Source: a virus
Length of the DNA stretch: 64,000 bases
Reading direction: 5' to 3' (one strand)
IMG/VR virus record: IMGVR_UViG_3300024346_000044
Coordinates: 8,294 to 72,293 of that record
Shown: positions 44,106 through 61,670 of the stretch, in pieces
Layout of the letters: every line of letters begins with the position of its first letter
How positions within the stretch are numbered: position 1 is the stretch's first letter
Position numbers and translations under genes: made by a program
Notes under the pieces: model-generated
The model's database searches: none
The model's input: the letters and a program-made list of their open reading frames with translations, nothing else
Told to the model about the DNA's origin: nothing

Positions 44106-45815
44106 ATGGATAATAACTTAGTAGCAGATACAACAAAATGGGAAAAGGGTAAAGATTACCCTGAATGGATGAATGACGTAGCCTTATCTACAATCTCAAA
44201 AGGTTATTTATTGCCAAATGAAACACCTAAAAAGGCATATCGTAGAGTAGCAAACTCTGTAGCAACAAGATTAGGTAGACCTGATTTAGAAAGTAAGTTT
44301 TTTAAATACATCTGGAATGGTTGGATTGGTTTAGCTTCTCCTGTTTTATCAAACACAGGCACAGATAGAGGATTACCAATTTCATGTTTTGGTGTTGATA
44401 CCCCGGATTCAATTAGAGGAATTGGACTAACTAATGCAGAATTAATGAAACTTACTTCACAAGGTGGTGGAGTAGGTATTTCATTATCAAGAATTAGAGA
44501 AAGAGGTTCAACTATTAAAGGAAATGGAAAATCAGAAGGAGTAGTTCCATGGGCTAAAATATATGATTCAACTATAATAGCTACAAACCAAGGAAGTGTA
44601 CGAAGAGGAGCGGCTAGTGTTAATTTAGATATTAACCACCCTGATATTGGTGAATATCTTCAAATTAGAAGACCAAAAGGTGATCCCAATAGACAATGTT
44701 TAAACTTACACCAATGTGTGGTAGTAGATGATGCCTTTATGAGAAGGTTAAATGATAGAGACCCAGAATCAATGAATCTTTGGATGCAAATTTTAAAATC
44801 AAGAGTTGAAACTGGAGAACCTTACATAATGTTTAAAGATAATGTTAATAAGGATAATCCAATGGCTTATTTAATGAATAATCTAGATGTGTCAATGACC
44901 AATATTTGTTCAGAAATTACATTACATACAGATGAAGAACATAGTTTTATATGTTGTTTATCAAGTTTAAATTTAGCTAAATACGATGAATGGAAAGATA
45001 CAGATGTAGTTGAAACCGCTATTTATTTTCTTGATGGTATAATGGAAGAATTTATTCAAAAAACTAATGGTAAAGAATCAATGATTAGAACCCACAGACA
45101 TGCTAAAAAAGGTAGAGCATTAGGTTTAGGTGTAATGGGGTGGCATACGTTTTTACAAAAGAAAAATCTACCATTTAATTCTATTGCATCAACTGCCTGG
45201 ACTCATACGGTATTTTCACAAATAAAATTAAAAGCAGAAACTGCATCTCGTGAATTAGCAGAAGAATATGGAGAACCTTTATGGTGTAAAGGAACAGGTA
45301 TGAGAAATACTCATTTATTGGCGGTAGCACCAACAGTATCTAATTCTAGAATATCGGGATGCTCAGCAGGAATAGAACCACAACCCGCAAATGTTTATAC
45401 ATTTAATGGAGCTAAAGGTACATTTATAGTTAAAAACCCAGAATTAGTAAAAAAACTAAAAGAAAATGATCATGATACTGAAAAGGTATGGGATTCAATT
45501 TTAGTTGATAATGGTTCAGTACAGAATCTATCAAATAATATACTAAGCGAATCTGATAAAGAAGTATTTTTAACATTTTCAGAAGTAAATCAATTAGGTT
45601 TAATTCAACAAGCAGCTATTAGACAAAAATATATAGATCAAACCCAATCATTAAATTTATGTTTTGATCCAACAGATTCTCCAAAGTGGATAAATCAAGT
45701 ACACTTAGAGGCATGGAAATTAGGCATCAAAACACTATACTATTTACGAACTGACTCAGTTATTAAAGGAGATTTAGGATCCCGTGTAGCAGATTGTATT
45801 TCTTGTGAAGGGTAG
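44106..45815 (+). CDS. nrdA: Ribonucleotide reductase large subunit (short, no evident ATP cone)
   Basis: PISCF, GGGVG, RRGA, TNICSEI, CCLSSLNL, APTVS, KTLYY, C-terminal CISC. Confidence 0.95.
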   Translation: MDNNLVADTTKWEKGKDYPEWMNDVALSTISKGYLLPNETPKKAYRRVANSVATRLGRPDLESKFFKYIWNGWIGLASPVLSNTGTDRGLPISCFGVDTPDSIRGIGLTNAELMKLTSQGGGVGISLSRIRERGSTIKGNGKSEGVVPWAKIYDSTIIATNQGSVRRGAASVNLDINHPDIGEYLQIRRPKGDPNRQCLNLHQCVVVDDAFMRRLNDRDPESMNLWMQILKSRVETGEPYIMFKDNVNKDNPMAYLMNNLDVSMTNICSEITLHTDEEHSFICCLSSLNLAKYDEWKDTDVVETAIYFLDGIMEEFIQKTNGKESMIRTHRHAKKGRALGLGVMGWHTFLQKKNLPFNSIASTAWTHTVFSQIKLKAETASRELAEEYGEPLWCKGTGMRNTHLLAVAPTVSNSRISGCSAGIEPQPANVYTFNGAKGTFIVKNPELVKKLKENDHDTEKVWDSILVDNGSVQNLSNNILSESDKEVFLTFSEVNQLGLIQQAAIRQKYIDQTQSLNLCFDPTDSPKWINQVHLEAWKLGIKTLYYLRTDSVIKGDLGSRVADCISCEG

Positions 45816-47727: not shown

Positions 47728-48897
47728 ATGTTTAAAAAAATACAAGAAAGAGCATTCCCGTTCTTAATAGCTCTATCGGCTTTATCAGTATCAGCTTCAG
47801 CTGCTTTTTATTCAATTAGTGGATTATCAAAATTATTTGCTGGGGCAGCTTTTGCAGTTATAGTAATGTCTGCTTCATTAGAAGTTGCTAAATTAGTAAT
47901 AGCATCTTTACTTTATCAATACCGTAAAACCTTACCATTTTTACTAAAATCCTATTTATCAGTGGCGTGTGTTGTGCTGATACTAATAACTTCAATGGGT
48001 ATTTACGGCTTCCTATCGGCAGCATACCAAACGACGGCAAATAAAGAGGGTAATGCAGAATCTCGCATAGTATTAATAGAAACTAAAAGAGATAATATCA
48101 AGGACCAATTAGAGGTTTATACTGGAGAAAAGTCATCTATAAATGAAGCAGTATCAGAACTTAGGAAAGGACTATCTAATAATAAAATACAGTGGAGAGA
48201 TAAAGAAACAGGTCAAATTATTACTTCAACATCGAGTAGAACTAGAAAAGCATTAGAAAAGCAACTAGACCAAGCTATAATCAGACAAACAGAAATAAAT
48301 GCTAAAGTAGATGTTTTAAATGAAAAAATATTTAAATATGAAACTGAAATAGTAGAAACTAGAATAGGAGATGGTTCTACAAGTGAACTGGGGCCGCTTA
48401 AATATCTATCAGGGTTAACAGGTTTACCCATGGATAAAATTATAAATTATCTTTTATTAACAATAATATTTGTATTTGATCCTTTAGCTATAGCATTAGT
48501 AATAGCTGCTAATTTTGCATTTGCAAGATTAAATAATAATAAAAAACAAAATATATATGGTGAGATTGTAAAAATAAGACAAAAACCCACAGACACAAAA
48601 TCAGATTTAATATTTAAAGATGCTATAGCTTCCCCTATATCTGATACTGAAGATTTTCTTGAAGAGGAAGTAGAAGAAAAACAGGAAGAGAGAAAAGCCG
48701 AGAGGGTTAAAGCCCCAACACCTCCTTCTTCTACTGAATCTTCTATTAATCAAAAATTAAAAGAATTAAAACAACGTTTATCAAATACACCAAAAACAAA
48801 AAGGGTAGGTCCTAACTCAATAAAATCTTTAAAATCCCAAATTGAATCTCTTAAAAAAGACAACGATAAAGATGATGATTTAACAATTCTTTATTAA
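47728..48897 (+). CDS. Multi-TM membrane protein with long coiled coil
   Basis: Three N-terminal TMs (LEVAKL, GIYGFLS), coiled coil, ELGPLKY, IFVFDPLAI TM. Confidence 0.7.
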   Translation: MFKKIQERAFPFLIALSALSVSASAAFYSISGLSKLFAGAAFAVIVMSASLEVAKLVIASLLYQYRKTLPFLLKSYLSVACVVLILITSMGIYGFLSAAYQTTANKEGNAESRIVLIETKRDNIKDQLEVYTGEKSSINEAVSELRKGLSNNKIQWRDKETGQIITSTSSRTRKALEKQLDQAIIRQTEINAKVDVLNEKIFKYETEIVETRIGDGSTSELGPLKYLSGLTGLPMDKIINYLLLTIIFVFDPLAIALVIAANFAFARLNNNKKQNIYGEIVKIRQKPTDTKSDLIFKDAIASPISDTEDFLEEEVEEKQEERKAERVKAPTPPSSTESSINQKLKELKQRLSNTPKTKRVGPNSIKSLKSQIESLKKDNDKDDDLTILY

Positions 48898-48902: not shown

Positions 48903-48935
48903 TTTGGCTTCCTAAATAAGGGTTCGTATATTTAC
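48903..48935 (+). promoter_or_regulatory. Bacteroidota sigma70-type promoter for the deazaguanine operon
   Basis: TTTG 48903, CGTATATTTAC with TA at 48927. Confidence 0.7.
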
Positions 48936-48938
48936 TAC

Positions 48939-49460
48939 ATGGATAAATTGAGAACCCAATACATTTTCAACATAGACAAAGAACACGTTACACAAGAGAT
49001 ATCAAAATTACAACCACTTAATTATAACCAATTTAGATGGTGGAGACGATTTGATTCACCAAATAAACCCCTTCATAAAAATTCAGATTTATTAGATAAA
49101 ATTCAAAATGGGGACTTTGATTTTTCACATTATTTTTGGCAGGCAAAATATACAGAAATGGAAATGGATGAAATTCATAATGAGGTCTGGCCTGACTCAG
49201 TTAAATATAAGGAAAAAACTTCAATCCATGGTGCCCGAAGACAACGTTTATGGGCTGACTTTGAAAAAGACGAACAAGAAAAACTCAATAGCATATATAA
49301 AGAATTTCCTCTTTCTATTAGAATGACTCGTAAACAAGTAAGAGAAGGAATAGAAGAATTTGGAGGTACGCTAGAGGATTATTATCATTACTGTAAAGAT
49401 AAGTTTGGAGCAAGACACAAACGATTAGAAACAAGAGGAAGACCAAGAAAAGTTATATGA
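48939..49460 (+). CDS. Hypothetical protein heading the deazaguanine operon
   Basis: Aromatic-rich (YNQFRWWRR, KIQNGDF), RGRPRK tail; overlaps the next gene (ATGA). Confidence 0.65.
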   Translation: MDKLRTQYIFNIDKEHVTQEISKLQPLNYNQFRWWRRFDSPNKPLHKNSDLLDKIQNGDFDFSHYFWQAKYTEMEMDEIHNEVWPDSVKYKEKTSIHGARRQRLWADFEKDEQEKLNSIYKEFPLSIRMTRKQVREGIEEFGGTLEDYYHYCKDKFGARHKRLETRGRPRKVI

Positions 49461-50251
49461 AAGTATCACACGAAGCACCAATACCCTATATGAAACAAGT
49501 TAGGGGATTAATTGATTATGATTATTGTCTCCCCCATATGTTAGATGAAAATGAAGATTATGTAAAATATTTTCAAGAATCTAAAGAAATGGGGCGGTAT
49601 ATTATTATGGATAACTCCTTACATGAGTTAGGACATCCATATGATAAAGAACGTTTGGCACATTGGCTATATTATTTCAAACCAGATGAGTTTATAGTAC
49701 CTGATTATTGGCAAGATAAAACAGCAACGTTAGTATCAGCTAAAGAATGGATTAATAAAATATATCCTGAAAATACTACTCCTATGGCTGTAGTACAAGG
49801 TAAAAATAAAAATGAATCCAGAGAATGTTATGATATATTAAAACATCAAGGATATCAAAAAATAGCATTTAGTTATGGAGCTGATTGGTATTATGAAAAT
49901 GGAAAATCTACTTCTAAAACCACAGAAAATATAACAGTAACTAAAGCCCATGGCCGGTATAATTTTATAAAAGAATTATATGAGGATAATACAATATCAA
50001 AATCAGACAGAATACATTTATTAGGTTGCAATATACCCCAGGAATTTAAATGGTATAAAAATATGCCATTTATAAAAACAATAGATACATCAAACCCAGT
50101 TATACATGGTTTATCAGGAATAAAATATGAACCCTGGGGGTTAAATAACAAAATATCTACTAAGGTAGATAAATTTAAAGGAGAAGCTGAGCATTGGGAA
50201 ACAGCAATTTACAATATACAATTATTTAAAACATTTATACCAAAAACATGA
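49457..50251 (+). CDS. TGT-fold transglycosylase-like protein (DpdA family, possibly DpdA3-type)
   Basis: IIMDNSLHELG, IVPD, AVVQG, IHLLG, IDTS spaced like TGT/DpdA barrel motifs; coupled to queC. Confidence 0.65.
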   Translation: MKVSHEAPIPYMKQVRGLIDYDYCLPHMLDENEDYVKYFQESKEMGRYIIMDNSLHELGHPYDKERLAHWLYYFKPDEFIVPDYWQDKTATLVSAKEWINKIYPENTTPMAVVQGKNKNESRECYDILKHQGYQKIAFSYGADWYYENGKSTSKTTENITVTKAHGRYNFIKELYEDNTISKSDRIHLLGCNIPQEFKWYKNMPFIKTIDTSNPVIHGLSGIKYEPWGLNNKISTKVDKFKGEAEHWETAIYNIQLFKTFIPKT

Positions 50252-51114
50252 AACAAGCAGTATTAAGTTTAAGTGGTGGGATGGATAGTAGTACACTATT
50301 ACTTCACTTATTAGCAAACGATTATAAAGTAACAGCTCTAAGTTTTGATTATGGTCAAAAACATAGAGTTGAATTAGAAAGAGCACAACAATTAGTAGAT
50401 TATTTAAATGATAATGGTCAAGATATCACATATCAATCTATTAAATTAGATGGTTTAACATCATTATTAGATTCAGCTTTAGTAGAAGGTGGGGATGATG
50501 TGCCCGAAGGACATTATGAAGAAGATAATATGAAAGCAACAGTAGTGCCTAATAGAAATAAAATATTCTCATCACTAATACAATCTGTAGCGTTATCAAT
50601 CGCTAATAAAACAGAATCATCGGTAAAAATAGCAATGGGTATACATGCTGGGGATCATGCAATTTACCCTGATTGTAGACAAGAATTTAGAGATGCGGAT
50701 TATAAAGCATTTGCTGAAGGTAATTGGGATGCTCAAAGAGTAGGATTATACACACCTTATTTAGATGGAGATAAATTTGATATTTTAAAAGATGGAGAAG
50801 TATGTTGTAAAGAATTAGGAATTGATTTTGATGAAGTTTATAAAAGAACAAATACATCATACAAACCTGTTTTTATACCTCACCCTTGGTCTGATACTGG
50901 AGGAGGAAATTGGTATTCAGATTACAAATCGGCATCATCAGTAGAAAGAATAGAAGCATTTTTAAAATTAGGAAGACCTGACCCTGTGGTATATGCTGAT
51001 GAAACAGGAGTTGTAGGTTATGAAATTGCAAAATCTCATGTTCAAAAATTATTGGATGAGTATGCAAATAATCCTAATATGAATGATACCATTGATATGG
51101 TAAATAATATGTAA
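50248..51114 (+). CDS. queC: 7-cyano-7-deazaguanine synthase
   Basis: SLSGGMDSS, FDYGQKH..E, VPNRN, GIHAGDHAIYPDCR. Confidence 0.95.
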   Translation: MKQAVLSLSGGMDSSTLLLHLLANDYKVTALSFDYGQKHRVELERAQQLVDYLNDNGQDITYQSIKLDGLTSLLDSALVEGGDDVPEGHYEEDNMKATVVPNRNKIFSSLIQSVALSIANKTESSVKIAMGIHAGDHAIYPDCRQEFRDADYKAFAEGNWDAQRVGLYTPYLDGDKFDILKDGEVCCKELGIDFDEVYKRTNTSYKPVFIPHPWSDTGGGNWYSDYKSASSVERIEAFLKLGRPDPVVYADETGVVGYEIAKSHVQKLLDEYANNPNMNDTIDMVNNM

Positions 51115-51115
51115 T

Positions 51116-51271
51116 ATGAAACAACCAGACGCAAAAAAACATCAATTAGTAAGTTTTATTAAATCAAGTATAAGAATATTAGGTTATTGTTTTATACCAT
51201 TTAGTTTAGTAACTGCTATGCTTATTTTAGTAGCTAGTGAAGCAATAGGTATAGTAGAAGAATTAGTTTAA
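51116..51271 (+). CDS. 51-aa membrane peptide (not in the ORF track)
   Basis: MKQPDAKKHQLVSFIKSSIRILGYCFIPFSLVTAMLILVASEAIGIVEELV fills the queC-thioredoxin gap. Confidence 0.7.
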   Translation: MKQPDAKKHQLVSFIKSSIRILGYCFIPFSLVTAMLILVASEAIGIVEELV

Positions 51272-51287
51272 AATAAAATAAGTAAAA

Positions 51288-51557
51288 ATGAAAGTACAAG
51301 TTAAAAAAGGAATATTATATTTTACAGCTCCATGGTGTGGACCTTGTAAACAATTAGGACCTAAAATGGAACAATTAGAAAATAGTGGGGTTCCTATTAA
51401 AAAAATAAATACAGATTATGAAGCTACTTTAGTTACACAATATGCTATAAAATCTGTTCCAACTTTAGTCATAACTGATTTAGATGGAAATGAAATAAAA
51501 AGAATACAAGGTGGTGGAAAATCACTTCAACAATTAAAAGACTGGTATAATGGGTAA
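51288..51557 (+). CDS. Thioredoxin
   Basis: FTAPWCGPCK, IKSVPT. Confidence 0.92.
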   Translation: MKVQVKKGILYFTAPWCGPCKQLGPKMEQLENSGVPIKKINTDYEATLVTQYAIKSVPTLVITDLDGNEIKRIQGGGKSLQQLKDWYNG

Positions 51558-52014
51558 ATTTCAATCAAGTAAAGTTTTTGACGGATTTAGTACAGTATTC
51601 CGTCAATGGAAGGCAGAAGATACACACTGTAAATTTTTACATGGGTATGGTATTTCATTTAAAGTATATTTTGAAGGTGAATTAGATGAAAAAAATTGGG
51701 TATGGGATTTTGGTGGTATGAAAAGAGCTAAAACACTTATAGAAGGTAAACAACCTAAAGAATGGATGGATTATATGTTTGACCATACTGTTATAATAGC
51801 AGAAGATGATCCTGGAATGGGTGGTTGGAAAACAATGGATGGGATAGGAGTAATTCAATTAAGAGTAATACCAGCTACAGGAGCAGAAAAATTTTCAGAG
51901 TTTATATTTAATAAGTTAAATGACTTTGTCCATACAGAAACTGAAGGTAGAGTAAGAGTTACTAAAGTTAAGTTTATGGAACACGGTAAAAACGCAGCTT
52001 ATTATTGTGAATAA
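51550..52014 (+). CDS. queD: 6-carboxytetrahydropterin synthase
   Basis: HCKFLHGY, WVWDFG, FDHT, GAEKF, EHGKN. Confidence 0.88.
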   Translation: MGKFQSSKVFDGFSTVFRQWKAEDTHCKFLHGYGISFKVYFEGELDEKNWVWDFGGMKRAKTLIEGKQPKEWMDYMFDHTVIIAEDDPGMGGWKTMDGIGVIQLRVIPATGAEKFSEFIFNKLNDFVHTETEGRVRVTKVKFMEHGKNAAYYCE

Positions 52015-52020
52015 TTTTAT

Positions 52021-52091
52021 TATCGGGTCGTCTAGAGGCAGGACAATGGTTTTTGGTACCATGAACGGAGGTTCGAATCCTTCCCCGATAA
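52021..52091 (+). tRNA. tRNA-Gln(TTG)
   Basis: Acceptor TATCGGG/CCCGATA, anticodon arm ATGGT-TTTTGGT-ACCAT, T arm GGTTCGAATCC; no encoded CCA. Confidence 0.9.
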
Positions 52092-52104
52092 CGATAAAAC
52101 CAAA

Positions 52105-52178
<74 letters not shown>

Positions 52179-52183
52179 TTAAT

Positions 52184-52255
52184 GCTCCGTTCGTCTAGGG
52201 GTTAGGACATATGGTTTTCATCCATAAAACAGGGGTTCGATTCCCCTACGGAGTA
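52184..52255 (+). tRNA. tRNA-Glu(TTC)
   Basis: GCTCCGT/ACGGAGT acceptor, TATGG-TTTTCAT-CCATA, GGTTCGATTCC. Confidence 0.92.
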
Positions 52256-52279
52256 CAGTAAATAATAAATGAAAAATAA

Positions 52280-53050
52280 ATGAAAAGAATAGAAGATTAT
52301 AACAAAGTGTTACCAGTATTAGAATTATACAGATGTGTTCAAAGTGAAGGTAGCAGATTTGGTAGACCAACTATTGCGGTTAGAACTACAGGATGTACTC
52401 ATAGATGTTATTTTGGAGATGGGGGTTGGTGTGATTCTTGGTATACAAGTATACACCCAGAAAAAGGTACATTTACCTTTAATGATATTATTAAAATATA
52501 TGATGACAACCCCCATGTAAAAGAAATGATGCTTACTGGTGGTTCGCCTACAATGCATCCTGCTTTAGTAAATGAAATAACACATTTTGCAAATGAAAGA
52601 AACATTTTGGTTACAATTGAGACAGAAGGTTCTCATTTTCTTGAAACAGACCATCCTTTGGATCTTATTAGCCTTAGTCCTAAATTTAGTAATAGTGTGC
52701 CTGTACTTGGCGCTGTTACACCTAATGGGGCTGTCGCCGATGAACGAATGATTAAAGTGCATAATAGACTTAGATTAAATAAAGAAGCTATTAGTAAAAC
52801 AATTGCATACCATAAAGATTATCACTTCAAACCCGTATGGGATGGTACAGATGAAAATCTAAAAGAAATTGAGGCATTTAGGGTAGATATGGAAATACCC
52901 AAAGATAAAACTTATATAATGCCTGCTGGGGATACAAGAGAAACATTAGTAAAAATGTATCCTTTAGTATTTGAATTGTGTGCTGAAAAGGGATATAATA
53001 TGACAGGCAGAGACCACATCATTGCATTTGATACAGAAAGAGGTGTCTAA
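52280..53050 (+). CDS. queE: 7-carboxy-7-deazaguanine synthase (radical SAM)
   Basis: QSEG..G.P...R..GC, CTHRC-x7-CDS, LTGGSP, TIETEG, SLSPK. Confidence 0.9.
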   Translation: MKRIEDYNKVLPVLELYRCVQSEGSRFGRPTIAVRTTGCTHRCYFGDGGWCDSWYTSIHPEKGTFTFNDIIKIYDDNPHVKEMMLTGGSPTMHPALVNEITHFANERNILVTIETEGSHFLETDHPLDLISLSPKFSNSVPVLGAVTPNGAVADERMIKVHNRLRLNKEAISKTIAYHKDYHFKPVWDGTDENLKEIEAFRVDMEIPKDKTYIMPAGDTRETLVKMYPLVFELCAEKGYNMTGRDHIIAFDTERGV

Positions 53051-53177
53051 AGAAGAAGCATTAGAAATATTAGAAGAAGTAAAAGAAAATGTTAATACAT
53101 GCTGTGCTATAACTATGGAACCAGATGAAGTATTAGATTTAATAGAAAAATTAGAAGAATACATACAAAATGCGTAA
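53043..53177 (+). CDS. 44-aa acidic peptide (not in the ORF track)
   Basis: GTG start overlapping the queE end; MSKEEALEILEEVKENVNTCCAITMEPDEVLDLIEKLEEYIQNA; stop overlaps the next gene. Confidence 0.55.
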   Translation: MSKEEALEILEEVKENVNTCCAITMEPDEVLDLIEKLEEYIQNA

Positions 53178-53745
53178 AATAAAAATAACATTAGTTTTAA
53201 TCCTTAGTAGTATTATAACTTATAGTCAAATTATAAAAACAGATATTTTTACAGTTAATTATTCTGAAAAATATGAACAACCCCTATGGTTAGAATATAC
53301 AATACAATGTCCAAATGGACATGCTGAAAGAACAGGTATGAATTTTTGGACCCCTAAAGGAATAAAAACATCAGATGATGCAGATTATAAAGATAACATC
53401 TATGATAAAGGTCATTTAGCACCTGCGGCAGCATTTAACTGTGATAAAGAAACATTACTTAAAACGTTTTCATATTTAAATTCAGCTTTACAACATGAAG
53501 GATTAAATAGAGGACAATGGGCAAGATTAGAATCATTTGAAAGAAGTTTAGCTAACTTTTTTGAACAAGAAGTTAAGGTAAGGGTAGATGTTTTATTTGA
53601 AGGTAACTTAAAGAAAGTAAAAGGTGGAGCTACTATACCTAGTGGTTTTAAAAAAACAATAATAATGGGAGATATAACCAAAGTATTTGAATTTCCTAAT
53701 AAAAATACAACAGGTACAAACTGGATAGAATATTTAATAAAATGA
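53170..53745 (+). CDS. DNA/RNA non-specific endonuclease (NucA/EndoG-type) with signal peptide
   Basis: MRKIKITLVLILSSIITYS signal-like N-terminus; YDKGHLAPA, FSYLN..LQ...LNRG.W..LE, IPSGFKK. Confidence 0.88.
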   Translation: MRKIKITLVLILSSIITYSQIIKTDIFTVNYSEKYEQPLWLEYTIQCPNGHAERTGMNFWTPKGIKTSDDADYKDNIYDKGHLAPAAAFNCDKETLLKTFSYLNSALQHEGLNRGQWARLESFERSLANFFEQEVKVRVDVLFEGNLKKVKGGATIPSGFKKTIIMGDITKVFEFPNKNTTGTNWIEYLIK

Positions 53746-54167
53746 AAAAAATAATAATAGATTGGGACCAAATAGATAAGCTAATATCCAGACTATCATA
53801 TCGGATTGAAGTTAGTGATGATAAATTTGAAAATATATATGGTTTACAAAGAGGTGGTTTAATACCAGCTGTAATGTTATCTCATAAATTAGGAATGCCT
53901 ATGACTAAAGGAGATATTGGCCCCAATACTTTAATAGTTGATGATATTTGTGATAGCGGAGAAACCTTAGACAAATTAGTAAATAAATATCAAACATTAT
54001 ATTCTTATCCTTTTAACCTTAAAACAGCAGTTTTACATTATAAACCCCATACTTCATGTTTTAAACCTACTTTATATGCTAAAAAATGGGATAATTCAAA
54101 CTGGATAGAATACCCCTGGGAGAGAGAAGATTCAAAAGCTATACAAGATTACAAGGTAAATATTTAA
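53742..54167 (+). CDS. Purine phosphoribosyltransferase (type I PRTase)
   Basis: GLQRGGLIPA, PRPP loop LIVDDICDSGET, WIEYPWE. Confidence 0.9.
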   Translation: MKKIIIDWDQIDKLISRLSYRIEVSDDKFENIYGLQRGGLIPAVMLSHKLGMPMTKGDIGPNTLIVDDICDSGETLDKLVNKYQTLYSYPFNLKTAVLHYKPHTSCFKPTLYAKKWDNSNWIEYPWEREDSKAIQDYKVNI

Positions 54168-54245
54168 ATTTATGATCTAAAATTTTCATTTATATATTTA
54201 TCATCGAATAAGAGTTATGTTACACGTTTAACATAAAAAGAGAAG

Positions 54246-54638
54246 ATGAAAATAGGAGAAAACACAGAAATCAAAGTAGATTTAAAAACAATAATAGCAA
54301 TAGTAATGATTACATCTACATTTGTAGGAATGTATTATACATTACAAGCTGATATAGAAATTGCTAAATCAGAACCTAAAGCCGCAATTGAAAGGTTAGA
54401 GTATGACCTTAGAGAAGAGTGGAATGAGAAGATGATTATAAATTTAGAAGAAAGAGTAGAAATTTTAGAAGAATCTCAGGATTTATTAAGAGAAGAAGTT
54501 AAAATAACATCTACAATGCTTAAAGATGGTACTGAAAAAGATGATAAATTTGCAGAATTAAATAGGCAAATGGAATTATTAAAAAAACGAAAGCCAACTG
54601 TAATTATTAAAGAAGTTCCGAAAAAACGTAAATGGTAA
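54246..54638 (+). CDS. Single-TM coiled-coil protein
   Basis: DLKTIIAIVMITSTFVGMYYTLQADIE; behind late motif 54194. Confidence 0.65.
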   Translation: MKIGENTEIKVDLKTIIAIVMITSTFVGMYYTLQADIEIAKSEPKAAIERLEYDLREEWNEKMIINLEERVEILEESQDLLREEVKITSTMLKDGTEKDDKFAELNRQMELLKKRKPTVIIKEVPKKRKW

Positions 54639-54874
54639 TGGAAGAAGTATTAGATCTTATTAGAGAGTTTGGACTATCTTTAGTCATAGCAGTAGGAGCT
54701 TTATATGCTTTATATAAATTTTTCTTTTTTAGTATTAGGGAAGTTAAAAATGAATTTGGAAGAAGACATGAAGTAATGGCTAAAAACATGGAGGATGTTA
54801 AAGTTAGTTTAGCTGAAGTTAAATCTGATTTAAAAATTTTAGTTGAATTATTAAAAGATTCTAAGGGTAAATGA
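54632..54874 (+). CDS. Single-TM coiled-coil protein (holin-like)
   Basis: FGLSLVIAVGALYALYKFFF followed by a coiled coil. Confidence 0.6.
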   Translation: MVMEEVLDLIREFGLSLVIAVGALYALYKFFFFSIREVKNEFGRRHEVMAKNMEDVKVSLAEVKSDLKILVELLKDSKGK

Positions 54875-55071
54875 GATTAAGTTTAAAACAAGAAAAATAT
54901 CTTTGTATGCTAAATCGTTTAGATGCATTTAAACTAATCAAACTCGAACAATCTAAACAAGTCCAAATGGGGTTATCAAATATAAATTATGATTTCCTTA
55001 AATTAATAGAATGTGAAGATCAGTTAGAAATGATTGACACAGTACTTCAGGTGAGAGCGTTAAGTAATTAA
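54871..55071 (+). CDS. Hypothetical protein
   Basis: Overlaps the end of the previous gene; 66 aa, helical. Confidence 0.5.
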   Translation: MRLSLKQEKYLCMLNRLDAFKLIKLEQSKQVQMGLSNINYDFLKLIECEDQLEMIDTVLQVRALSN

Positions 55072-55123
55072 AAAATAACGTGTATTATTCACTTATTTTT
55101 CGTATATTTCCACCAAAACGGTT

Positions 55124-55294
55124 ATGAAAACTAAATACAAAATTTCAATTACAAATTATAATAATTATGGAATACCCATCAGTGGTATCTCAAGGATTAT
55201 TTCTGATTTAACCTTTGGTAAAATTAGAAGATTTCAAAACAAATACCCAGGTAGGGTAGATTTAATTAGAAAGTTAGATATAAAAGAAATATAG
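55124..55294 (+). CDS. 56-aa basic protein (not in the ORF track)
   Basis: ATG 55124 right after promoter CGTG-N20-TATATTTC (55079/55103); MKTKYKISITNYNNYG...IKEI. Confidence 0.5.
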   Translation: MKTKYKISITNYNNYGIPISGISRIISDLTFGKIRRFQNKYPGRVDLIRKLDIKEI

Positions 55295-55296
55295 TT

Positions 55297-55491
55297 ATGG
55301 CAAAATTAACAAGAACAGTAAATTACGCAAACTTCAGATGGGAAGAATATGTGTTAACAGAAGAAGAATTAGCAAAATGGAAAACAGGTGATGAAGATCT
55401 CCAACAAGAAGTCATAGATGATGCAGATTGGGACCTAGTAAGAGATAAACCAATTGATGATTATGGAGACGTAGAATTCGTAGAAGATTAA
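55297..55491 (+). CDS. Small acidic hypothetical protein
   Basis: 64-aa ORF coupled to the next gene. Confidence 0.6.
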   Translation: MAKLTRTVNYANFRWEEYVLTEEELAKWKTGDEDLQQEVIDDADWDLVRDKPIDDYGDVEFVED

Positions 55492-55748
55492 TGGTTATAT
55501 CATTAGCTTACGGTTTAGCAGGATCAACGTTTTTGGTTGTGTTAACAAACCTATTAATGAAACTATTCAAAAAGTTTAATAATATAGGTTATTCAATAGT
55601 ATATGCTAGTTTATTTTTAAAACTAATATTTTTAAGTGGTTTTGTACTAGCAACAAGAGGTGAAATACCAAATCAAATAATATTTGCTGTTGCAATACTT
55701 GGAGGTATAATGTATTCAACAGTAAACGTAATATTAAAATTAAAATGA
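55491..55748 (+). CDS. Small three-TM membrane protein
   Basis: Three hydrophobic helices. Confidence 0.6.
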   Translation: MVISLAYGLAGSTFLVVLTNLLMKLFKKFNNIGYSIVYASLFLKLIFLSGFVLATRGEIPNQIIFAVAILGGIMYSTVNVILKLK

Positions 55749-55927
55749 GTAAATTTATTAAGTTTACCTTAATATGGATAAGTCAAAATCTAGCTATACC
55801 TTTTTGGATAGTAGGACATATCCACTTATCAACAAATGTATATAATGATTTGCATGAAATAGGAGCATCAATAGGAATGAATCTTATAGTATTAATAGGA
55901 TTTATTTTAGATTATAGACAAAGTTAA
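55745..55927 (+). CDS. Small two-TM membrane protein
   Basis: WISQNLAIPFW.VGHIHL, MNLIVLIGF. Confidence 0.6.
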   Translation: MSKFIKFTLIWISQNLAIPFWIVGHIHLSTNVYNDLHEIGASIGMNLIVLIGFILDYRQS

Positions 55928-55959
55928 TTTGGAAATATTAAAAAATTATCGTATATTTA
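55928..55959 (+). promoter_or_regulatory. Bacteroidota sigma70-type promoter for folE-mazG-polB-clamp
   Basis: TTTG 55928, CGTATATTTAA with TA at 55952. Confidence 0.7.
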
Positions 55960-56000
55960 ATACGAAAGTGAATAAAACACCACTTAAAAAAATTAAAAAT

Positions 56001-56696
56001 ATGGAAAACAAACGAAGAAAAATTCACGAAGAGTTAGAAGTAGTGCAAGAAGGCTTTGCAAATGGAGTTGCACCTGGATTCCCTTTAAAACAAGAAGATA
56101 AAGATGAAATGATACAAAAAGCTACTAAAGCTTATGGTGAATTTTTAGATGCTTTGAAATGTGATTGGAGAAATGATCCAAATTCAATGGAAACCCCAAA
56201 ACGTGTAGCTAAAGCATATGTAAACGATTTATGGGCAGGTAGATATAATCAAATGTCTCCAATAACTTCATTTCCATCTGATGGTTATGATGGTATTATT
56301 ATAGAAAGAAATATTCCTTTAACATCTATGTGTTCACATCACCACCAAACAATAGGAGGTGTAGTTCATATTGGTTATATTGCAGGAGATAAAGGACAAG
56401 TAATTGGATTATCAAAACTAAACAGAATAGTTGAATTATTTGGTAGAAGAGGAGCAATACAAGAACAATTAACATCAGCAATACACAATGCTGTAGATAA
56501 GATTACAGAAGGTAATAGAGGTGTTATTGTTACTATAGTAGGAACACATAATTGTGTTAGCTGTAGAGGAGTTAAACATCAAGGAGCAGCAATGGTTACA
56601 ACTAAAGCTTCAGGTGTGTTTAGAGAAAATGACAATTTAGCTAGAAAAGAATTTTTTGACAGCCTAAAGATTAACAACGGAGGGCATAATATATAA
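56001..56696 (+). CDS. folE: GTP cyclohydrolase I
   Basis: ETPKRVAK, SMCSHH, GLSKLNR, IQEQLT, HNCVSCRGV. Start moved to ATG 56001 because the TTG at 55929 lies inside the promoter. Confidence 0.95.
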   Translation: MENKRRKIHEELEVVQEGFANGVAPGFPLKQEDKDEMIQKATKAYGEFLDALKCDWRNDPNSMETPKRVAKAYVNDLWAGRYNQMSPITSFPSDGYDGIIIERNIPLTSMCSHHHQTIGGVVHIGYIAGDKGQVIGLSKLNRIVELFGRRGAIQEQLTSAIHNAVDKITEGNRGVIVTIVGTHNCVSCRGVKHQGAAMVTTKASGVFRENDNLARKEFFDSLKINNGGHNI

Positions 56697-56699
56697 GTT

Positions 56700-57350
56700 A
56701 TGAATAGAAATAGATCACTAGATGAGTACCGACAAACTAAAGATACAGTATATCAGGTACCTAAATATGATCCCCAAACTGGGGAAATAAATCCTTACTA
56801 TAAGGAACTAACAGGAATGGATGTCAATCAAACACAATTAGATTTCTATCCTGAAATGCAAACGGATGTTGATTTTGTAAACGAAGTAGAAGAATTCAAT
56901 AGAACGTTTGGTAAACCTAATAATTATGAACCAACAATACCGGAAAAAAAAGAATGGCAATTCGTATACGACTTTATACTTGAAGAATTGGAAGAATATA
57001 GACAAGCTTGCGAAAACGGAGACATCGTGGAAGTTTTGGATGCTTTGTGTGATATTGCTTATGTTTCCCTTGGGAACGGCACCATGTTACATGGCCTTAA
57101 GGATAAGATATGGCCAGCCTATCAAGAAGTACAAGAATCAAATATGTCTAAGTCTTGCCTCACTGAGAAAGAAGCAATGGAAACTGTCACCCTCCGTGCT
57201 AAAGAACAAGCTGAGCCATGTCATTTTGAACAGGTAGGAACTAGATTTGTTGTTTATAGAACAAGAGATCGTAAAGTAATGAAATCAATAAATTACTTTA
57301 GGCCTAATTTAACTAAATTCTTTACACAAAAGGAATTAGATAATGTTTAA
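56700..57350 (+). CDS. MazG-like / PRA-PH family NTP pyrophosphohydrolase
   Basis: V.EF...F, ILEELEEY, EVLDALCDIAYV, EVQESNMSK, KVMKS..Y..P.L. Confidence 0.85.
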   Translation: MNRNRSLDEYRQTKDTVYQVPKYDPQTGEINPYYKELTGMDVNQTQLDFYPEMQTDVDFVNEVEEFNRTFGKPNNYEPTIPEKKEWQFVYDFILEELEEYRQACENGDIVEVLDALCDIAYVSLGNGTMLHGLKDKIWPAYQEVQESNMSKSCLTEKEAMETVTLRAKEQAEPCHFEQVGTRFVVYRTRDRKVMKSINYFRPNLTKFFTQKELDNV

Positions 57351-59109
57351 AAAATGTTTTGCAAGAAAATCAGGTTTTAATTCTTTTAATATTGATTTAT
57401 GGACAGATGAGGGCCATGAAAAAATTGAAAATTGGAGGAACCATGCTTATAAAGAATGTGATGAATCAAAGGCAACACATATAGGGTTAAAAAATGAACC
57501 TTTAATGAAGACTCTTGATTGGAATAATGAATCTGAGGGTATTCATTTTCATGATATGCCTCCTTACCAAAAATTCTTAATTGAAAAATATGGTACTAAT
57601 GATGAAACATCTACTACTCATAAAATATTATACTTTGATATTGAAACTGAAATGGGGGATGCCTTAACACCTGAATATATTAGGTCTGCTCCTAAAAAAG
57701 TAACATCTATTGCCTATTACGATGATATGGGGGATGAATGGGGTTGTCTTATTTTAGACCCAGATAATAAGATATCAAGTAAAAAATTTAAAAATAAAAT
57801 CATCACATCTTGTAGTGATGAAAAAGAATTACTTAGTAAGTTTATAACTAAATGGAATGAAATTGAACCTGATATTATAGTAGGTTGGAATAGTGATTAT
57901 TTTGATATTCCTTATTTAGTTCATAGATGTAATAAAATTTTAGGTAAAGATATTACTAAATATTTCTCACCAATTGGGTATATTAGAGAAACACCTTGGT
58001 TAATAACTGAAAGAGGAGGACAATACTTACAGATATGTGGTGTACAATCATTGGATTATATGCGTTTACACATTAAATTTTCGTGGGCCGATGAACCTTC
58101 AATGCGTCTGCAGGCTATAGGAGAAAAATACGTTAAACTCGGGAAAGTTGATTATGAAGGAAATTTAGATAGATTATATGAAACTGACATTGATAAGTTT
58201 ATTCAATACAATTTTCGTGATGTTGAAATATTAGTTGAACTTAATAAAAAGTTAGAATATATTTCTTTAGTAAAAAATCTATCTCATAAGGGTAAACATA
58301 ATTATGAGGAAGTATATGCAAATACTAAAACACAAGATGGTGCTATATCTGCTTACTTATTAGGTAAAGGAATAATCCCACCTAAAAAAGGTAAAATGCC
58401 TTCAAGGGATCCAAATGGTAATAAACCTTCATATGCAGGTGGTTATTTATTTTGCCCTAAAGCAGGAATATATAATAATATGTTTGATTTAGATTTCACT
58501 TCACTATATCCTACTATCATAATGACTGTAAATATAGGAAATGAAACTATGGTAGGTAGAGTTGATTTACCCTTTAATGAAAAAAAGGTTAATTATGAAG
58601 GTAAAGAAGTTTGGAATTGTAGATACGCCTTATCAGATTTAAAACAAATGGATTCAAATAAAGAATTAAGTATTATTAGTTATAAAAACAATAAGGATGG
58701 GATAACTCGTCCCTTAAAAGTTAAGGATTTAATACATCATATTGAAAAGAATAAATGGACTATATCAGCAAATGGTGTTATGTTTAGTTCTAAAACTGAA
58801 TCAGTATTATCAACTATTCTAAAAAAATGGTTTAATGAAAGGGTTATGTATAAAAACCAAATGAAAGAAGCTAAAAAATCAGGTAATAAAGAATTAGCAG
58901 CTCAACTTCATATGAAGCAATATACAATGAAGATTTTATTAAATAGTTTATATGGTGCTACTGCTCTTGGTGCTTTTAGATATGGAAATATTCTATTAGC
59001 AGAATCAATTACTTTAACAGGTCAAAGATTAATCCAAGACTCAGCTAAAGCCATAAATGATTATTTTAATGATGTAATGGAAGATAAAATAAAATTAGAA
59101 TTATGTTAA
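57343..59109 (+). CDS. Family B DNA polymerase, N-terminal part (exonuclease plus motifs A and B)
   Basis: ExoI YFDIETE, ExoII WNSDYFD, ExoIII YNFRDV, motif A DFTSLYP, motif B KILLNSLYG; lacks motif C. Confidence 0.92.
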   Translation: MFKKCFARKSGFNSFNIDLWTDEGHEKIENWRNHAYKECDESKATHIGLKNEPLMKTLDWNNESEGIHFHDMPPYQKFLIEKYGTNDETSTTHKILYFDIETEMGDALTPEYIRSAPKKVTSIAYYDDMGDEWGCLILDPDNKISSKKFKNKIITSCSDEKELLSKFITKWNEIEPDIIVGWNSDYFDIPYLVHRCNKILGKDITKYFSPIGYIRETPWLITERGGQYLQICGVQSLDYMRLHIKFSWADEPSMRLQAIGEKYVKLGKVDYEGNLDRLYETDIDKFIQYNFRDVEILVELNKKLEYISLVKNLSHKGKHNYEEVYANTKTQDGAISAYLLGKGIIPPKKGKMPSRDPNGNKPSYAGGYLFCPKAGIYNNMFDLDFTSLYPTIIMTVNIGNETMVGRVDLPFNEKKVNYEGKEVWNCRYALSDLKQMDSNKELSIISYKNNKDGITRPLKVKDLIHHIEKNKWTISANGVMFSSKTESVLSTILKKWFNERVMYKNQMKEAKKSGNKELAAQLHMKQYTMKILLNSLYGATALGAFRYGNILLAESITLTGQRLIQDSAKAINDYFNDVMEDKIKLELC

Positions 59110-59363
59110 GTAAACAATCAATAAGAAAAGAACATACTATTTATTTAAATGATGTTCAAATGACTAAAGAAGAAATTTTAAAAATAGCAGAAGACTTTAA
59201 TGAAAAAGAAGAACTTCATTTTAGAAAAATGCTAAAGCAAGGAGGGAAGCTTAAAGTTAGAAATTATGTATTTGATATAAAGAAATCAGAAAAACAATTA
59301 AGAAATAGTAAAGGTGAATGGGAAAAACCAGCAAAACCCCACAACCCAGACCAATGGAATTAA
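59103..59363 (+). CDS. 86-aa basic protein between the two polB halves
   Basis: Overlaps the polB-N stop; FRKMLKQGG motif. Confidence 0.65.
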   Translation: MLSKQSIRKEHTIYLNDVQMTKEEILKIAEDFNEKEELHFRKMLKQGGKLKVRNYVFDIKKSEKQLRNSKGEWEKPAKPHNPDQWN

Positions 59364-59394
59364 TTTTAAAGTACAACTTATACAATTCAATTAA

Positions 59395-60333
59395 ATGAAG
59401 CACTTAGAGGATACACCTGAATTTGTATGTGATAAAGAAAAAAATAATTATTGTGTCTATATAGATACTGATAGTAATTATTTCCATGCAGAACCTTTAT
59501 TAAAGAAACTCCACCCTAATTTTGATAAAATGTCAAATGAGGAGAAGGATGATTTAACAGAAAAGTTAGCTATTGCAAGTCAAACTATGGTAGGTCCAAT
59601 TTTAAAACAAATAACTAAACAATCATTTAATCAACATAATCCTGAAAATCAAAGAATTGACTTTAAAAATGAATGTGTATTAAGATCAGGTTATATTAGG
59701 GCTACTAGAAGGTATACACAATACATTACTAGAGAAGAAGGCATTAAAACTAATAAATTTGATATTAAAGGTTTAGAATTTAAAAAAGCTAACTTCCCAC
59801 CTAAATTTGGTAAATTTTTTAAAGAATTAGTTTTAAGTTCTTTAGAGGGGGTTGATAAGGAGATACTAGATGCTAAAGTAAAGAAATTTAGAACCGATAT
59901 ATTAGATGGAACTATCCCTTTATCAGATTTAGCTAACCCTACATCAGTAAAAAAGTTAAATAAATATACTGAACGTAAAGCGAGATCGGGAGAAATATTT
60001 TCTAAAATAGGTAAAGGCGCCCCTGCTGCGGTTAAGGCTACTATTATTTACAATGATTTATTAAGATTTTGGAATCTACATAGGGTACATAGTGAAATAG
60101 CTCAAGGGGATAAAATTAAATGGATTTATTTAAAAACAAACCCATATAATATTGAAGCAATTGCCCTTTTAGAGTGGGATTACCCAGATAAAATGCGTAC
60201 ATTCATTGAGGAATATGCAGATAGAAAGAAAATTTTTGAAAGTGTATTATTAAATAAATTAGAAGGTTTTTATAGTGATTTAGAATGGTCATTAAATTTA
60301 AACCCTTACCAACAAACATTTTTTAACTTATGA
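59395..60333 (+). CDS. Family B DNA polymerase, C-terminal part (motif C plus thumb)
   Basis: YIDTDS, K.E, RRY, KGLE, GDKIKWIYL. Confidence 0.92.
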   Translation: MKHLEDTPEFVCDKEKNNYCVYIDTDSNYFHAEPLLKKLHPNFDKMSNEEKDDLTEKLAIASQTMVGPILKQITKQSFNQHNPENQRIDFKNECVLRSGYIRATRRYTQYITREEGIKTNKFDIKGLEFKKANFPPKFGKFFKELVLSSLEGVDKEILDAKVKKFRTDILDGTIPLSDLANPTSVKKLNKYTERKARSGEIFSKIGKGAPAAVKATIIYNDLLRFWNLHRVHSEIAQGDKIKWIYLKTNPYNIEAIALLEWDYPDKMRTFIEEYADRKKIFESVLLNKLEGFYSDLEWSLNLNPYQQTFFNL

Positions 60334-61064
60334 TAAATAAATTAGTTTTACAAAGTATTATAAATAAATACCATTTAGGTATAGTACAATCAGTTAATTG
60401 GAGTATTAAAAATAATACAGTACTAATTGATTTTATGGATCCTTCAAAAGAAGTTATTGGGAGTGTTGAACATACTGAATTTGAATTAGAAAATTGTGAT
60501 TTATCTATTTTTGATACTAAAAAATTGCAAAATTTAATTTCTATTACTAATGGGGATTTAATAGTAGAATTAGAAAAAAACCATTTAATCCCAACAAAGC
60601 TAAAAATATCAGATCCAAATTTTAATCTAACATATAGGTTAGGAGATCCTTTATTAATTGATAAAGTAGGTACAGTTAATATCCCTAAATGGGAAAATAG
60701 AATACCATTAGAAGTAGAGGATCTAGAAAATTTAATTAAAGCTAAGAATGCATTAAGAGAAGAAGATAATATGTTTGTAGAAACTGTTACGAATGATGAT
60801 GGGGATAACGTATGTAGATTTGTATTTGGGGATGTTAAAGAATTTGACAGTAAAATTACTTACCAATTACCAGGTGAGATAACAGAACTGGGGGTTAAAA
60901 TGCCATTTAACTCAGAATTATTTAAATCTATATTGTACGCTAATAAAGATATGGATATTGGAGAAATCCATTTAACTAGTACGGGATTAATGAAACTTAA
61001 TTTTACTTCTGAAAATACTACTAGTGAATATTTTATTGTAAGAAAAGTAGAAGATGAATTTTAA
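60330..61064 (+). CDS. Sliding clamp (gp45/PCNA-like)
   Basis: 244-aa alpha/beta protein coupled to polB-C; IFDTKKL, GLMKLNF..E...SEY pattern; clamp loader nearby. Confidence 0.7.
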   Translation: MINKLVLQSIINKYHLGIVQSVNWSIKNNTVLIDFMDPSKEVIGSVEHTEFELENCDLSIFDTKKLQNLISITNGDLIVELEKNHLIPTKLKISDPNFNLTYRLGDPLLIDKVGTVNIPKWENRIPLEVEDLENLIKAKNALREEDNMFVETVTNDDGDNVCRFVFGDVKEFDSKITYQLPGEITELGVKMPFNSELFKSILYANKDMDIGEIHLTSTGLMKLNFTSENTTSEYFIVRKVEDEF

Positions 61065-61108: not shown

Positions 61109-61642
61109 CAAGCTTAGGATGCACAAACAGCTCACCAAATTGGGAGCCGAGTATTATATTAAAAACATAAATTTTAGAATTATGACACTATTACGAGAAA
61201 TAGACCCTGGTCTAGCCAGACGATTACACACCCCTTTTGACATTCTTGTCAGAAACTTTTTTGAAGCCGAAACCCCATTTAACCCTCTAACAACAGTAAA
61301 ACTCAAACATCCAGTAGATGTTTATGAAGATCCTAAAGGACTTCATTTAGAACTAGCTTGTACTGGGTTAACTAAAAAGGATATTAATTTAGCTATTGAA
61401 GGAGACGTTTTAAGAATTAGTTATATTAACAAAAATGAACAACCACCAAACCGAGAATATTATTATTCAGGTATTGCTAAACGTTCATTTAATTTTGGTT
61501 ATAAAGTAATTAATCGATTTAATTTATCAAAAGCCGATGCTAAGATGGAAAATGGATTACTAATAATATCAGTCCCTTTTTCTGAAGAAACAACCACCAC
61601 AAAAACAATCACAATAAAATAAAAGAAGTCATCCTAAGCTTG
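61109..61642. repeat. Perfect 13-bp inverted repeat flanking hsp20
   Basis: CAAGCTTAGGATG (61109-61121) and CATCCTAAGCTTG (61630-61642). Confidence 0.85.
61182..61622 (+). CDS. Small heat-shock protein (Hsp20)
   Basis: PVDVYE, LELACTG..K.DI, GIAKRSF, A.MENGLL.I. Start ATG 61182 is preferred over 61119. Confidence 0.9.
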   Translation: MTLLREIDPGLARRLHTPFDILVRNFFEAETPFNPLTTVKLKHPVDVYEDPKGLHLELACTGLTKKDINLAIEGDVLRISYINKNEQPPNREYYYSGIAKRSFNFGYKVINRFNLSKADAKMENGLLIISVPFSEETTTTKTITIK

Positions 61643-61670
61643 TTTTATTGAATTTTTTTTATTATATTAA
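61639..61670 (+). promoter_or_regulatory. Bacteroidota-type promoter for groES-groEL
   Basis: CTTG 61639, TATATTAA 61663. Confidence 0.55.

Follow-up and report, generated by a model that had tools for sequence, protein, structure and literature searches.

How could a phage replace the guanine of its genome with a 7-deazaguanine, and which enzymes would have to take part besides the one that exchanges the base? These questions are raised by a gene cluster at 48.9–61.1 kb of a 64,000-nucleotide stretch of viral DNA with a GC content of ~30% (the window; bases 8294–72293 of the 72,293-bp IMG/VR virus fragment IMGVR_UViG_3300024346_000044, CheckV completeness ~43%), where every gene lies on the + strand. 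Judged by gene identities and gene order, the cluster is a DpdA3-type 7-deazaguanine genome-substitution set, and the phage that carries it is a marine, uncultured relative of Flavobacterium phage immuto. A sequence-only reading of this DNA had proposed an undescribed system; because DpdA3 systems with 100% G replacement have already been published (PMC10516641), that part of the proposal falls. Its named genes are all recovered on the + strand by open reading frame (ORF) and Pfam scans, and its call of a 7-deazaguanine DNA module is borne out by DpdA3 similarity, fold and the que genes. What is new here is the set of partners to be considered: a purine phosphoribosyltransferase (PRTase) slot filled by two non-homologous forms, a deoxynucleoside triphosphate (dNTP) pyrophosphatase slot filled by two or three, and a P-loop kinase as a neighbour.

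The matter bears on phage defence: DNA in which all guanine is replaced withstands many restriction enzymes, and recently described glycosylases of defence systems are reported to target 7-deazaguanine DNA (bioRxiv 10.1101/2025.10.29.685425). The DpdA3 subfamily was defined and named by Cui et al. 2023 (PMC10516641), according to whose text immuto DNA contains 345,000 fdPreQ1 and phiST DNA 302,000 dDG per 10^6 nt, the deoxyguanosine (dG) peak being gone in both, and CP220 is listed as completely modified, fully dADG. DpdA3 phages reach 100%, against ≤30% in other DpdA phages.

Briefly, the window's proteins were scanned with Pfam, PHROG and NCBIfam, and compared with those of the source record (G000) and of three relatives (G001, G002 and G003, 99%, 100% and 95% complete). 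The DpdA3 family is large in marine viromes: the protein collection contains 2271 homologues (E ≤ 1e-3), and 482 IMG/VR stretches are confirmed, 80 of which are covered by our locus counts. Module counts were scored on the 28 of these 80 loci that span QueE to the N-terminal part of the PolB polymerase (the 52 non-spanning loci were left out), and loci were merged at 90% DpdA3 identity into 24 clusters; two loci (L002 and L003) have a DpdA3 identical to that of the window and possibly represent the same phage. PRTases were counted with iterated hidden Markov models and then typed by BLASTP against two seeds. Across the family, the gene order reads (ORF173)–DpdA3–QueC–(Trx)–QueD–QueE–PRTase–FolE–MazG–PolB–clamp-like–…–GroEL (window coordinates in Table 1).

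DpdA3 and the predicted base

The gene at the 5′ side of queC encodes a 264-aa protein that is 37% identical to the annotated DpdA of immuto (E 1e-56) and 36–37% identical to proteins of the CP220 group; it matches phrog_19058 (E 9.5e-45), and our A1 profile recovers the DpdA3 of phiST (E 3.8e-10). Library scans gave no Pfam or NCBIfam match, and a profile search of the PDB returned designed TIM barrels only, plus the bacterial DpdA structure 7ui4 at E 1.7, so that sequence profiles alone provide no link to tRNA-guanine transglycosylases (TGT). The link comes from structure: an AlphaFold (AF2) model (pLDDT 92.4) has as its top Foldseek match the DNA preQ0 insertase DpdA (PDB 7ui4, E 7.7e-8, TMq 0.53), followed by tRNA-guanine transglycosylase entries (TMq range 0.53–0.63), and the modelled protein thus adopts the TGT/DpdA TIM-barrel fold. 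Three Asp residues (D52, D83 and D210) do not vary among 17 sequences, and their succession agrees with that of Asp95, Asp130 and Asp256 in bacterial DpdA (bDpdA), a correspondence compared by order only. FolE, QueD, QueE and QueC are all encoded within 7 kb. The TGT/DpdA-like gene of the sequence-only reading is therefore this one, and not the gene that opens the interval, ORF173, which is not TGT-like.

ORF173 has no Pfam, PHROG or NCBIfam match, and its homologues occur in 43 of the 80 related loci, mostly just 5′ of DpdA3. We rejected it as a missing kinase, as it contains no Walker A motif and does not resemble the kinases of immuto and CP220, and its identity as a detached Gat domain was unsupported by the Pfam, NCBIfam and GATase_7 scans. 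Its best score in the ESM Atlas, 0.77 with all matches below 0.8, serves as a lead only.

The four preQ0 (7-cyano-7-deazaguanine) genes differ in how closely they follow their families. QueC carries the SGGMDS PP-loop and is 68–70% identical to the immuto QueC ORF, with which it shares a C-terminal extension of ~80 residues past the Pfam domain. The CxxCxxC motif, the zinc motif of QueC, was not found in its sequence. QueD reads CKFLHGY, a CxxxHGY variant of CxxxHGH that differs from the LxxxHRHxF of DpdL. QueE scores below the curated cut-offs of both Pfam and NCBIfam (the Pfam radical SAM match reaches 28.7 bits, just under the cut-off of 29.5), and the immuto QueE is annotated under a two-piece 77.9% DNA match covering 7% of the query. 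The start of FolE is more likely the ATG at 56001; the N-termini of relatives begin MENNRRK.

Which base these genes would yield depends on what follows QueC. No QueF (PF14489) was found above cut-off in the source record or in near-complete G001–G003, two weak PF14489 matches in relatives being discarded since they lie inside FolE ORFs, and none of 81 IMG/VR loci matched the QueF or DpdN proteins of immuto. The sequence-only reading had noted the absence of QueF from the window, which by itself is weak because the record is only ~43% complete, but which the near-complete relatives now back; its failure to see a Gat-QueC also holds, with GATase_7 in 0 of 6 records. The lack of QueF in these relatives makes the base likely preQ0 or 7-amido-7-deazaguanine (ADG), and since QueC is so close to the immuto enzyme, which must supply preQ0 to QueF, we infer preQ0 as the most likely product, in agreement with that reading, and ADG as the alternative. 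The virion DNA of this phage probably carries dPreQ0 or dADG.

Comparison with described systems places the module nearest to the DpdA3 phages of Cui et al. 2023. FolE, QueD and QueE are shared with them, a MazG-like protein and a Gpt-like PRTase are shared with immuto, and an AAA_28 kinase is common to this phage, immuto and CP220. In contrast to immuto and phiST, this phage and its near-complete relatives yielded neither QueF and DpdN (immuto) nor DpdL (phiST), the window polymerase is a split PolB rather than PolA or PolIII-alpha, the kinase does not adjoin DpdA3, and the chemistry is known only for immuto, phiST and CP220. The bacterial DpdA/DpdB/DpdC system of Salmonella Montevideo (PMC10164549) is alike in its TGT/DpdA fold, inserts preQ0, the base predicted here, and has its three Asp in an order that matches the invariant DpdA3 residues, whereas bDpdA is 413 aa long, and no ParB-like DpdB or DpdC was found here. 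The extents also differ, bDpdA modifying <0.1% of G at specific sites and DpdA3 phages 100% (PMC10516641).

Slots for a phosphoribosyltransferase and a pyrophosphatase, and a recurrent kinase

The window PRTase is a short protein of the Gpt-like, XGPRT (xanthine-guanine PRTase) class that is 49% identical to that of immuto and retains the phosphoribosyl pyrophosphate (PRPP) motif as VDDICDSG. It matches the purine PRTase of PDB 1vdm (E 8.9e-14) without a counterpart for ~25 residues (54–78) that form a hairpin there, and its closest families (1vdm, Sulfolobus GpT-1 and GpT-2, and E. coli XGPRT) all handle 6-oxopurines. Against NF006613 it scores 49.2 bits, under the cut-off of 138, and it appears to be a divergent Gpt-like enzyme, not a Gpt equivalog.

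A purine PRTase is present in 26 of the 28 spanning loci, where a single slot holds either a Gpt-like (12 loci, 132–147 aa) or an HPRT-like protein (14 loci, 162–183 aa), the latter with Pfam matches of E 4e-24 and 5e-18 in the two proteins scanned; by cluster (n = 24) the numbers are 10, 12 and 2 with none. Both types keep [VI]DDxxD[ST]G in all PRTases of these loci. The HPRT-like form, seen at L085:1480–1983, L086:1474–1983 and 12 more loci, amounts to non-orthologous displacement inside a conserved module. The PRTase lies directly 5′ of FolE in most relatives, including every locus inspected; seven small ORFs (56–130 aa, no family match in the four scanned) that separate the two genes in the window at 54246–55927 therefore look like an insertion.

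Outside these loci, Gpt-like PRTase matches were found in 13 phage records (immuto 4, phiST group 5, Brevundimonas 2, BUCT-ZZ01 1 and a faecal phage 1), of which 12 are from que-gene phages. This was checked in immuto, phiST, StAshley and BUCT-ZZ01, the que genes of phi13:1, phi19:2 and duplicate records being assumed by kinship to phiST or immuto; the sole exception, the unannotated faecal phage MT835497, has no FolE. Brevundimonas phage StAshley (L101) has the run RNR-beta, RNR-alpha (RNR, ribonucleotide reductase), dNMP kinase, FolE, PRTase, and Synechococcus phage BUCT-ZZ01 (L102) the run QueE, PRTase, x, QueD, FolE. Neither contains a TGT or DpdA3 at E ≤ 1, though a divergent DpdA could escape both profiles. 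Among six other DpdA3(-like) phage records, a PF00156 PRTase is present in two and was not found in CP220, Chryseobacterium phage MA9V-3, Weizmannia phage Youna2 or Bacillus phage BSTP12. Because four of six, including fully substituted CP220, do without it, a core route through the PRTase is excluded, and the earlier proposal of a general nucleotide-forming step is not sustained; by its distribution, the enzyme is linked to the pathway yet is not the general way in which the base reaches DNA.

The window's MazG-like protein, 73% identical to that of immuto, matches phrog_671 (E 5.5e-30) and has an acidic EExxE...DxxxD motif in which E95, E96, E99, D114 and D118 are unchanged across 11 sequences; neither its sequence nor its profile has a significant match in the PDB. 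Between FolE and PolB, a gene of dNTP-pyrophosphatase type occurs in 28 of 28 spanning loci, as a MazG-like gene in 25 (21 of 24 clusters) and as a Dcd/dUTPase-like gene in 3. These replacements, of 165–167 aa, lie at L085:2861–3358, L024:13844–14347 and L071:18757–19254; Pfam assigns the DCD/dUTPase fold to one of them, and the other two are matched to it by near-identical N-termini.

Since non-homologous enzymes of the same class fill each slot, there is good evidence from gene content that 6-oxopurine phosphoribosyl transfer and dNTP pyrophosphohydrolysis both belong to the pathway. The tie of PRTase and pyrophosphatase to the que genes in the sequence-only reading stands as more than a chance placement, but the MazG family is also common in phages that have no que genes (262 phage records, compared with 26 for DpdA3(-like) proteins).

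Six further phage lineages encode a P-loop kinase within three genes of DpdA3(-like). In CP220, gp057 (AAA_28) is directly 3′ of DpdA3, and directly 5′ is gp055 (L089:7868–8899), an HD and AAA_33 fusion for which dNTPase-kinase and polynucleotide kinase/phosphatase activity are both conceivable. An AAA_28 protein is found three genes 3′ of DpdA3 in immuto, with MazG on the 5′ side; in phiST, gp041 (annotated PF13238, AAA_18) is directly 5′, with MazG two genes further up and a split PolIII-alpha 3′ of DpdA3. MA9V-3 has an AAA_18/AAA_33 protein directly 5′ and a DCD-like gene near, and in Youna2 and BSTP12 a Walker-A protein lies directly 5′ and PolA directly 3′ of the DpdA3(-like) gene. The source record has an AAA_28 kinase of its own at G000:358–912 (L093), upstream of the window and not adjoining DpdA3, with homologues in G001–G003 and 28% identity to CP220 gp057 (E 4e-18). 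It has no significant sequence match in the PDB, and its model (pLDDT 81.5, from 4 sequences only) resembles dTMP kinases, deoxynucleoside kinases and the NadR kinase domain (TMq 0.6–0.73); such a predicted fold is that of a kinase of small molecules and differs from that of DpdB, an ATPase of ParB type. As a marker of DpdA3, the AAA_28 kinase was rejected: 89 of 110 phage records are Streptomyces phages, and Samisti12, the one checked, has no FolE.

Possible exchange of guanine on DNA or on nucleotides

In the reading that we favour, and to which we give an even chance, FolE, QueD, QueE and QueC would convert GTP to preQ0, or to ADG if QueC stops half-way, and DpdA3, acting as a minimal TGT-fold transglycosylase, would exchange guanine for this base on DNA, after or during replication as in the published model, and, by analogy with the three measured DpdA3 phages, at essentially every G. 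The PRTase would be an accessory enzyme that salvages the displaced guanine to GMP and on to GTP, refilling the FolE pathway, while the MazG-like protein and the thymidylate-kinase-like P-loop kinase would tune the (d)GTP pool. For DNA-level exchange speak the action of TGT-family enzymes on polynucleotides (PMC10164549) and the best structural match, which is a DNA-acting DpdA; for a guanine-type PRTase speak the 6-oxopurine families nearest to the window enzyme, the sharing of one slot by two unrelated 6-oxopurine PRTase types in nearly all spanning loci and their common [VI]DDxxD[ST]G motif, and for its accessory role the lack of a PRTase in four of six other DpdA3(-like) records.

Several observations weigh against this reading. 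To our knowledge, every other full phage base replacement is made at the nucleotide level. The invariable dNTP-pyrophosphatase-type gene between FolE and PolB, the P-loop kinases near DpdA3 in six other lineages together with the dTMP/deoxynucleoside-kinase-like model of the phage's own kinase, and the PRTase and que clusters of two phages with no detectable DpdA, where there is no obvious guanine source, all sit uneasily with it, and TubE, a purine-type PRTase, uses a 7-deazaguanine (PMC6112128). Cui et al. 2023 call the DpdA3 step post-replicative, a claim founded on these phages encoding a DpdA homologue; in E. coli that homologue did not work, and DpdA3 gave no product (PMC10516641). The word kinase does not occur in the main text of that paper. 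A modified-dGTP route was once proposed for Campylobacter phages (Hutinet 2019, PMC6884629), and DpdA is still the example of nucleic-acid-level modification in a December 2025 paper. We found no literature on DpdA3 or a pre-replicative route newer than Cui 2023, whose Supplementary Data S1 may list relatives of this phage.

In an alternative that we consider unlikely on balance, DpdA3 would exchange guanine for preQ0 on free dGMP or dG before replication rather than on DNA. The MazG-like enzyme (a Dcd/dUTPase-like or HD protein elsewhere) would then hydrolyse dGTP to dGMP and keep dGTP from the polymerase, the thymidylate-kinase-like kinase and kinases of the host would phosphorylate the product up to its triphosphate for incorporation by the phage polymerase, and the PRTase would recycle the freed guanine and close a guanine-to-GTP-to-preQ0 salvage loop. 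Such a scheme would fit the completeness of replacement in measured DpdA3 phages, the constant pyrophosphatase slot, the recurrence of both P-loop kinases and a polymerase beside DpdA3(-like) genes, and the homologous kinase of the source record with its dTMP/deoxynucleoside-kinase-like model. It would also fit the shortness of DpdA3 (264 aa against 355–413 aa for its structural matches), as well as the failed E. coli tests and a report of ADG nucleoside in the cytoplasm of CP220-infected cells (both PMC10516641). Against it, action on mononucleotides is not known for any enzyme of the TGT family, AAA_28 kinases are unspecific, given their predominance in Streptomyces phages, and MazG proteins are widespread. 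Crippen 2019 reportedly found no dADG phosphates in CP220-infected cells. Furthermore, adjacency may merely mirror a shared replication module, CP220 gp055 also resembles polynucleotide kinase/phosphatase architectures, and the P-loop proteins could be helpers at the DNA level, because bDpdA needs an ATPase partner, the ParB-type DpdB (PMC10164549).

A further scheme would make the PRTase the base-attaching enzyme, joining preQ0 or 7-carboxy-7-deazaguanine (CDG) to PRPP to give a ribonucleotide that a kinase, RNR and an NDP kinase would carry to the dNTP, with MazG removing dGTP, PolB incorporating the analogue and DpdA3 left in a secondary role. In HGPRTs (hypoxanthine-guanine PRTases), the third Asp of [VI]DDxxD[ST]G contacts N7, which 7-deazapurines do not have, and both phage PRTase types keep this Asp, a point against the scheme. 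Use of a 7-deazaguanine is nevertheless possible, because TubE, a purine-type PRTase described as specific for CDG and PRPP, accepts one (PMC6112128). The scheme draws further support from the near-restriction of Gpt-like PRTase records to que-gene phages, from StAshley and BUCT-ZZ01 with que genes and a PRTase in the absence of a detected TGT or DpdA3, and from RNR, which lies 3 kb upstream of the module in the window and adjoins the PRTase–kinase pair in phiST. It is weakened by the lack of a PRTase in most other DpdA3(-like) records and in 2 of the 28 spanning loci, by the missing residues at the 1vdm hairpin and by the idleness to which it would consign a universally present DpdA3; a ribonucleotide analogue would, moreover, enter RNA too. 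We regard it as improbable and as the weakest of these three explanations. The tubercidin cluster that encodes TubE resembles the phage set in pairing a purine-type PRTase with FolE, QueD and QueE, but is a Streptomyces secondary-metabolite cluster without QueC or nucleic-acid insertion genes (PMC6112128). Finally, the que genes might merely boost the host queuosine precursor for tRNA and leave phage DNA unmodified, as Hutinet 2019 offered for que phages without DpdA (PMC6884629); with a DpdA3 gene present that retains three invariant Asp, and with three DpdA3 phages fully substituted (PMC10516641), we think this very improbable.

If the base is attached before replication, DpdA3 is thus a better-supported candidate for that step than the PRTase. 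This leaves the Z-genome-like route of the sequence-only reading an open hypothesis, with its DpdA3 variant preferred over its PRTase variant. The PurZ/MazZ/DatZ/DpoZ system of Z genomes is alike in its full purine replacement and in placing a MazG-family or HD hydrolase beside synthesis genes and a polymerase, but no PurZ-like nucleotide-level synthase was seen here, the central enzyme is TGT-fold, and the specificities of MazG and polymerase are putative. A parallel in logic is phage T4, with its dCTPase (gp56), dCMP hydroxymethylase (gp42) and dNMP kinase (gp1): the combination of a dNTP pyrophosphatase, a base-modifying enzyme and a nucleotide kinase recurs around DpdA3 in several lineages, although the enzymes are unrelated and DpdA3 action on a mononucleotide is only hypothetical. 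Were nucleotide exchange true, DpdA3 would represent a new TGT-fold activity and offer a practical way to make 7-deaza-dGTP analogues enzymatically. The pathway would then be to purines what the hydroxymethylcytosine pathway of T4 is to pyrimidines, and would account for the fact that only DpdA3 phages reach 100%.

Polymerase, proposed promoter and surrounding genes

Table 1 Features of the module and its surroundings in the window
Feature	Coordinates	Strand	Basis or remark
Ribonucleotide reductase large subunit	44106..45815	+	PF02867 at G000:52675-54039 = window 44382-45746
ORF173, no assigned function	48939..49460	+	End overlaps DpdA3 start by 4 nt
DpdA3-subfamily TGT-fold transglycosylase (predicted), 264 aa	49457..50251	+	Similarity to immuto DpdA, phrog_19058, fold
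QueC-like 7-cyano-7-deazaguanine synthase, 288 aa	50248..51114	+	PF06508, E 2.1e-37, residues 3-206
Thioredoxin (Trx)	51288..51557	+	PF00085, E 6.7e-16
QueD, 6-carboxytetrahydropterin synthase family	51550..52014	+	PF01242, E 1.4e-13
QueE, radical SAM CDG synthase	52280..53050	+	TIGR03365, E 9.5e-15
Endonuclease_NS, non-specific DNA/RNA nuclease	53170..53745	+	PF01223, E 3.3e-25
Gpt-like (XGPRT-class) purine PRTase, short form, 141 aa	53742..54167	+	PF00156, E 2.4e-8
FolE, GTP cyclohydrolase I	55929..56696	+	PF01227, E 1.6e-42
MazG-like all-alpha NTP pyrophosphohydrolase	56700..57350	+	PF01503, E 7.2e-11, 42.8 bits vs 21.3 cut-off
PolB N-terminal part (exonuclease + start of polymerase domain)	57343..59109	+	PF00136, E 2e-28; PF03104, E 2.6e-15
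ORF86, small gene in PolB split	59103..59363	+	No significant family match
PolB C-terminal part	59395..60333	+	PF20286, E 3.4e-5
Clamp-like protein, tentative	60330..61064	+	NF002222 sliding clamp, E 8e-4, 19 bits vs 207 cut-off

The split in PolB is genuine and confined to some lineages: among 23 relatives with both halves, PolB is unsplit in 10 (ORFs of 736–909 aa, two of the 10 running to the locus end) and split in 13, where the halves have no gene between them in 4 and a gap of 241–689 nt in 9. ORF86 and the Endonuclease_NS gene are each present in some relatives only. The sequence-only reading had cast PolB as a selective partner that admits the base analogue; because the polymerase beside DpdA3 is PolB, PolA or PolIII-alpha according to lineage, a dedicated selective polymerase is not conserved, and the proposal does not hold in that form.

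The gene called a clamp in that reading is conserved 3′ of PolB in relatives, its identity hanging on a sub-threshold NF002222 match. A complex prediction for DpdA3 and the clamp-like protein scored 0.00 against a mark of 0.32, which is not evidence either way. The genes that run from folE through the clamp-like one are packed as tightly as described, with successive gaps or overlaps of +3, −8, −7, +31 and −4 nt. The single promoter placed at 55928 finds no support: a sigma-70 scan gave 75 sites against 79.3 ± 9.4 in shuffles, which is chance level for a model that is not of Bacteroidota type, and 55929–55957 holds only a weak 9/12 match.

Upstream of the module, a 328-aa ORF before the RNR large-subunit gene may encode the small subunit. 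The same region (43116–48897) places a lysis cassette between nucleotide-metabolism genes, with an endolysin (46351–47298, PG_binding_1 and Amidase_2), then a holin (47304–47717) and, after it, a 389-aa protein with putative hydrophobic N-terminal and central stretches. Downstream, Hsp20, GroES and GroEL (61119–63617) come directly after the replication genes, and GroES and GroEL follow the polymerase in immuto too.

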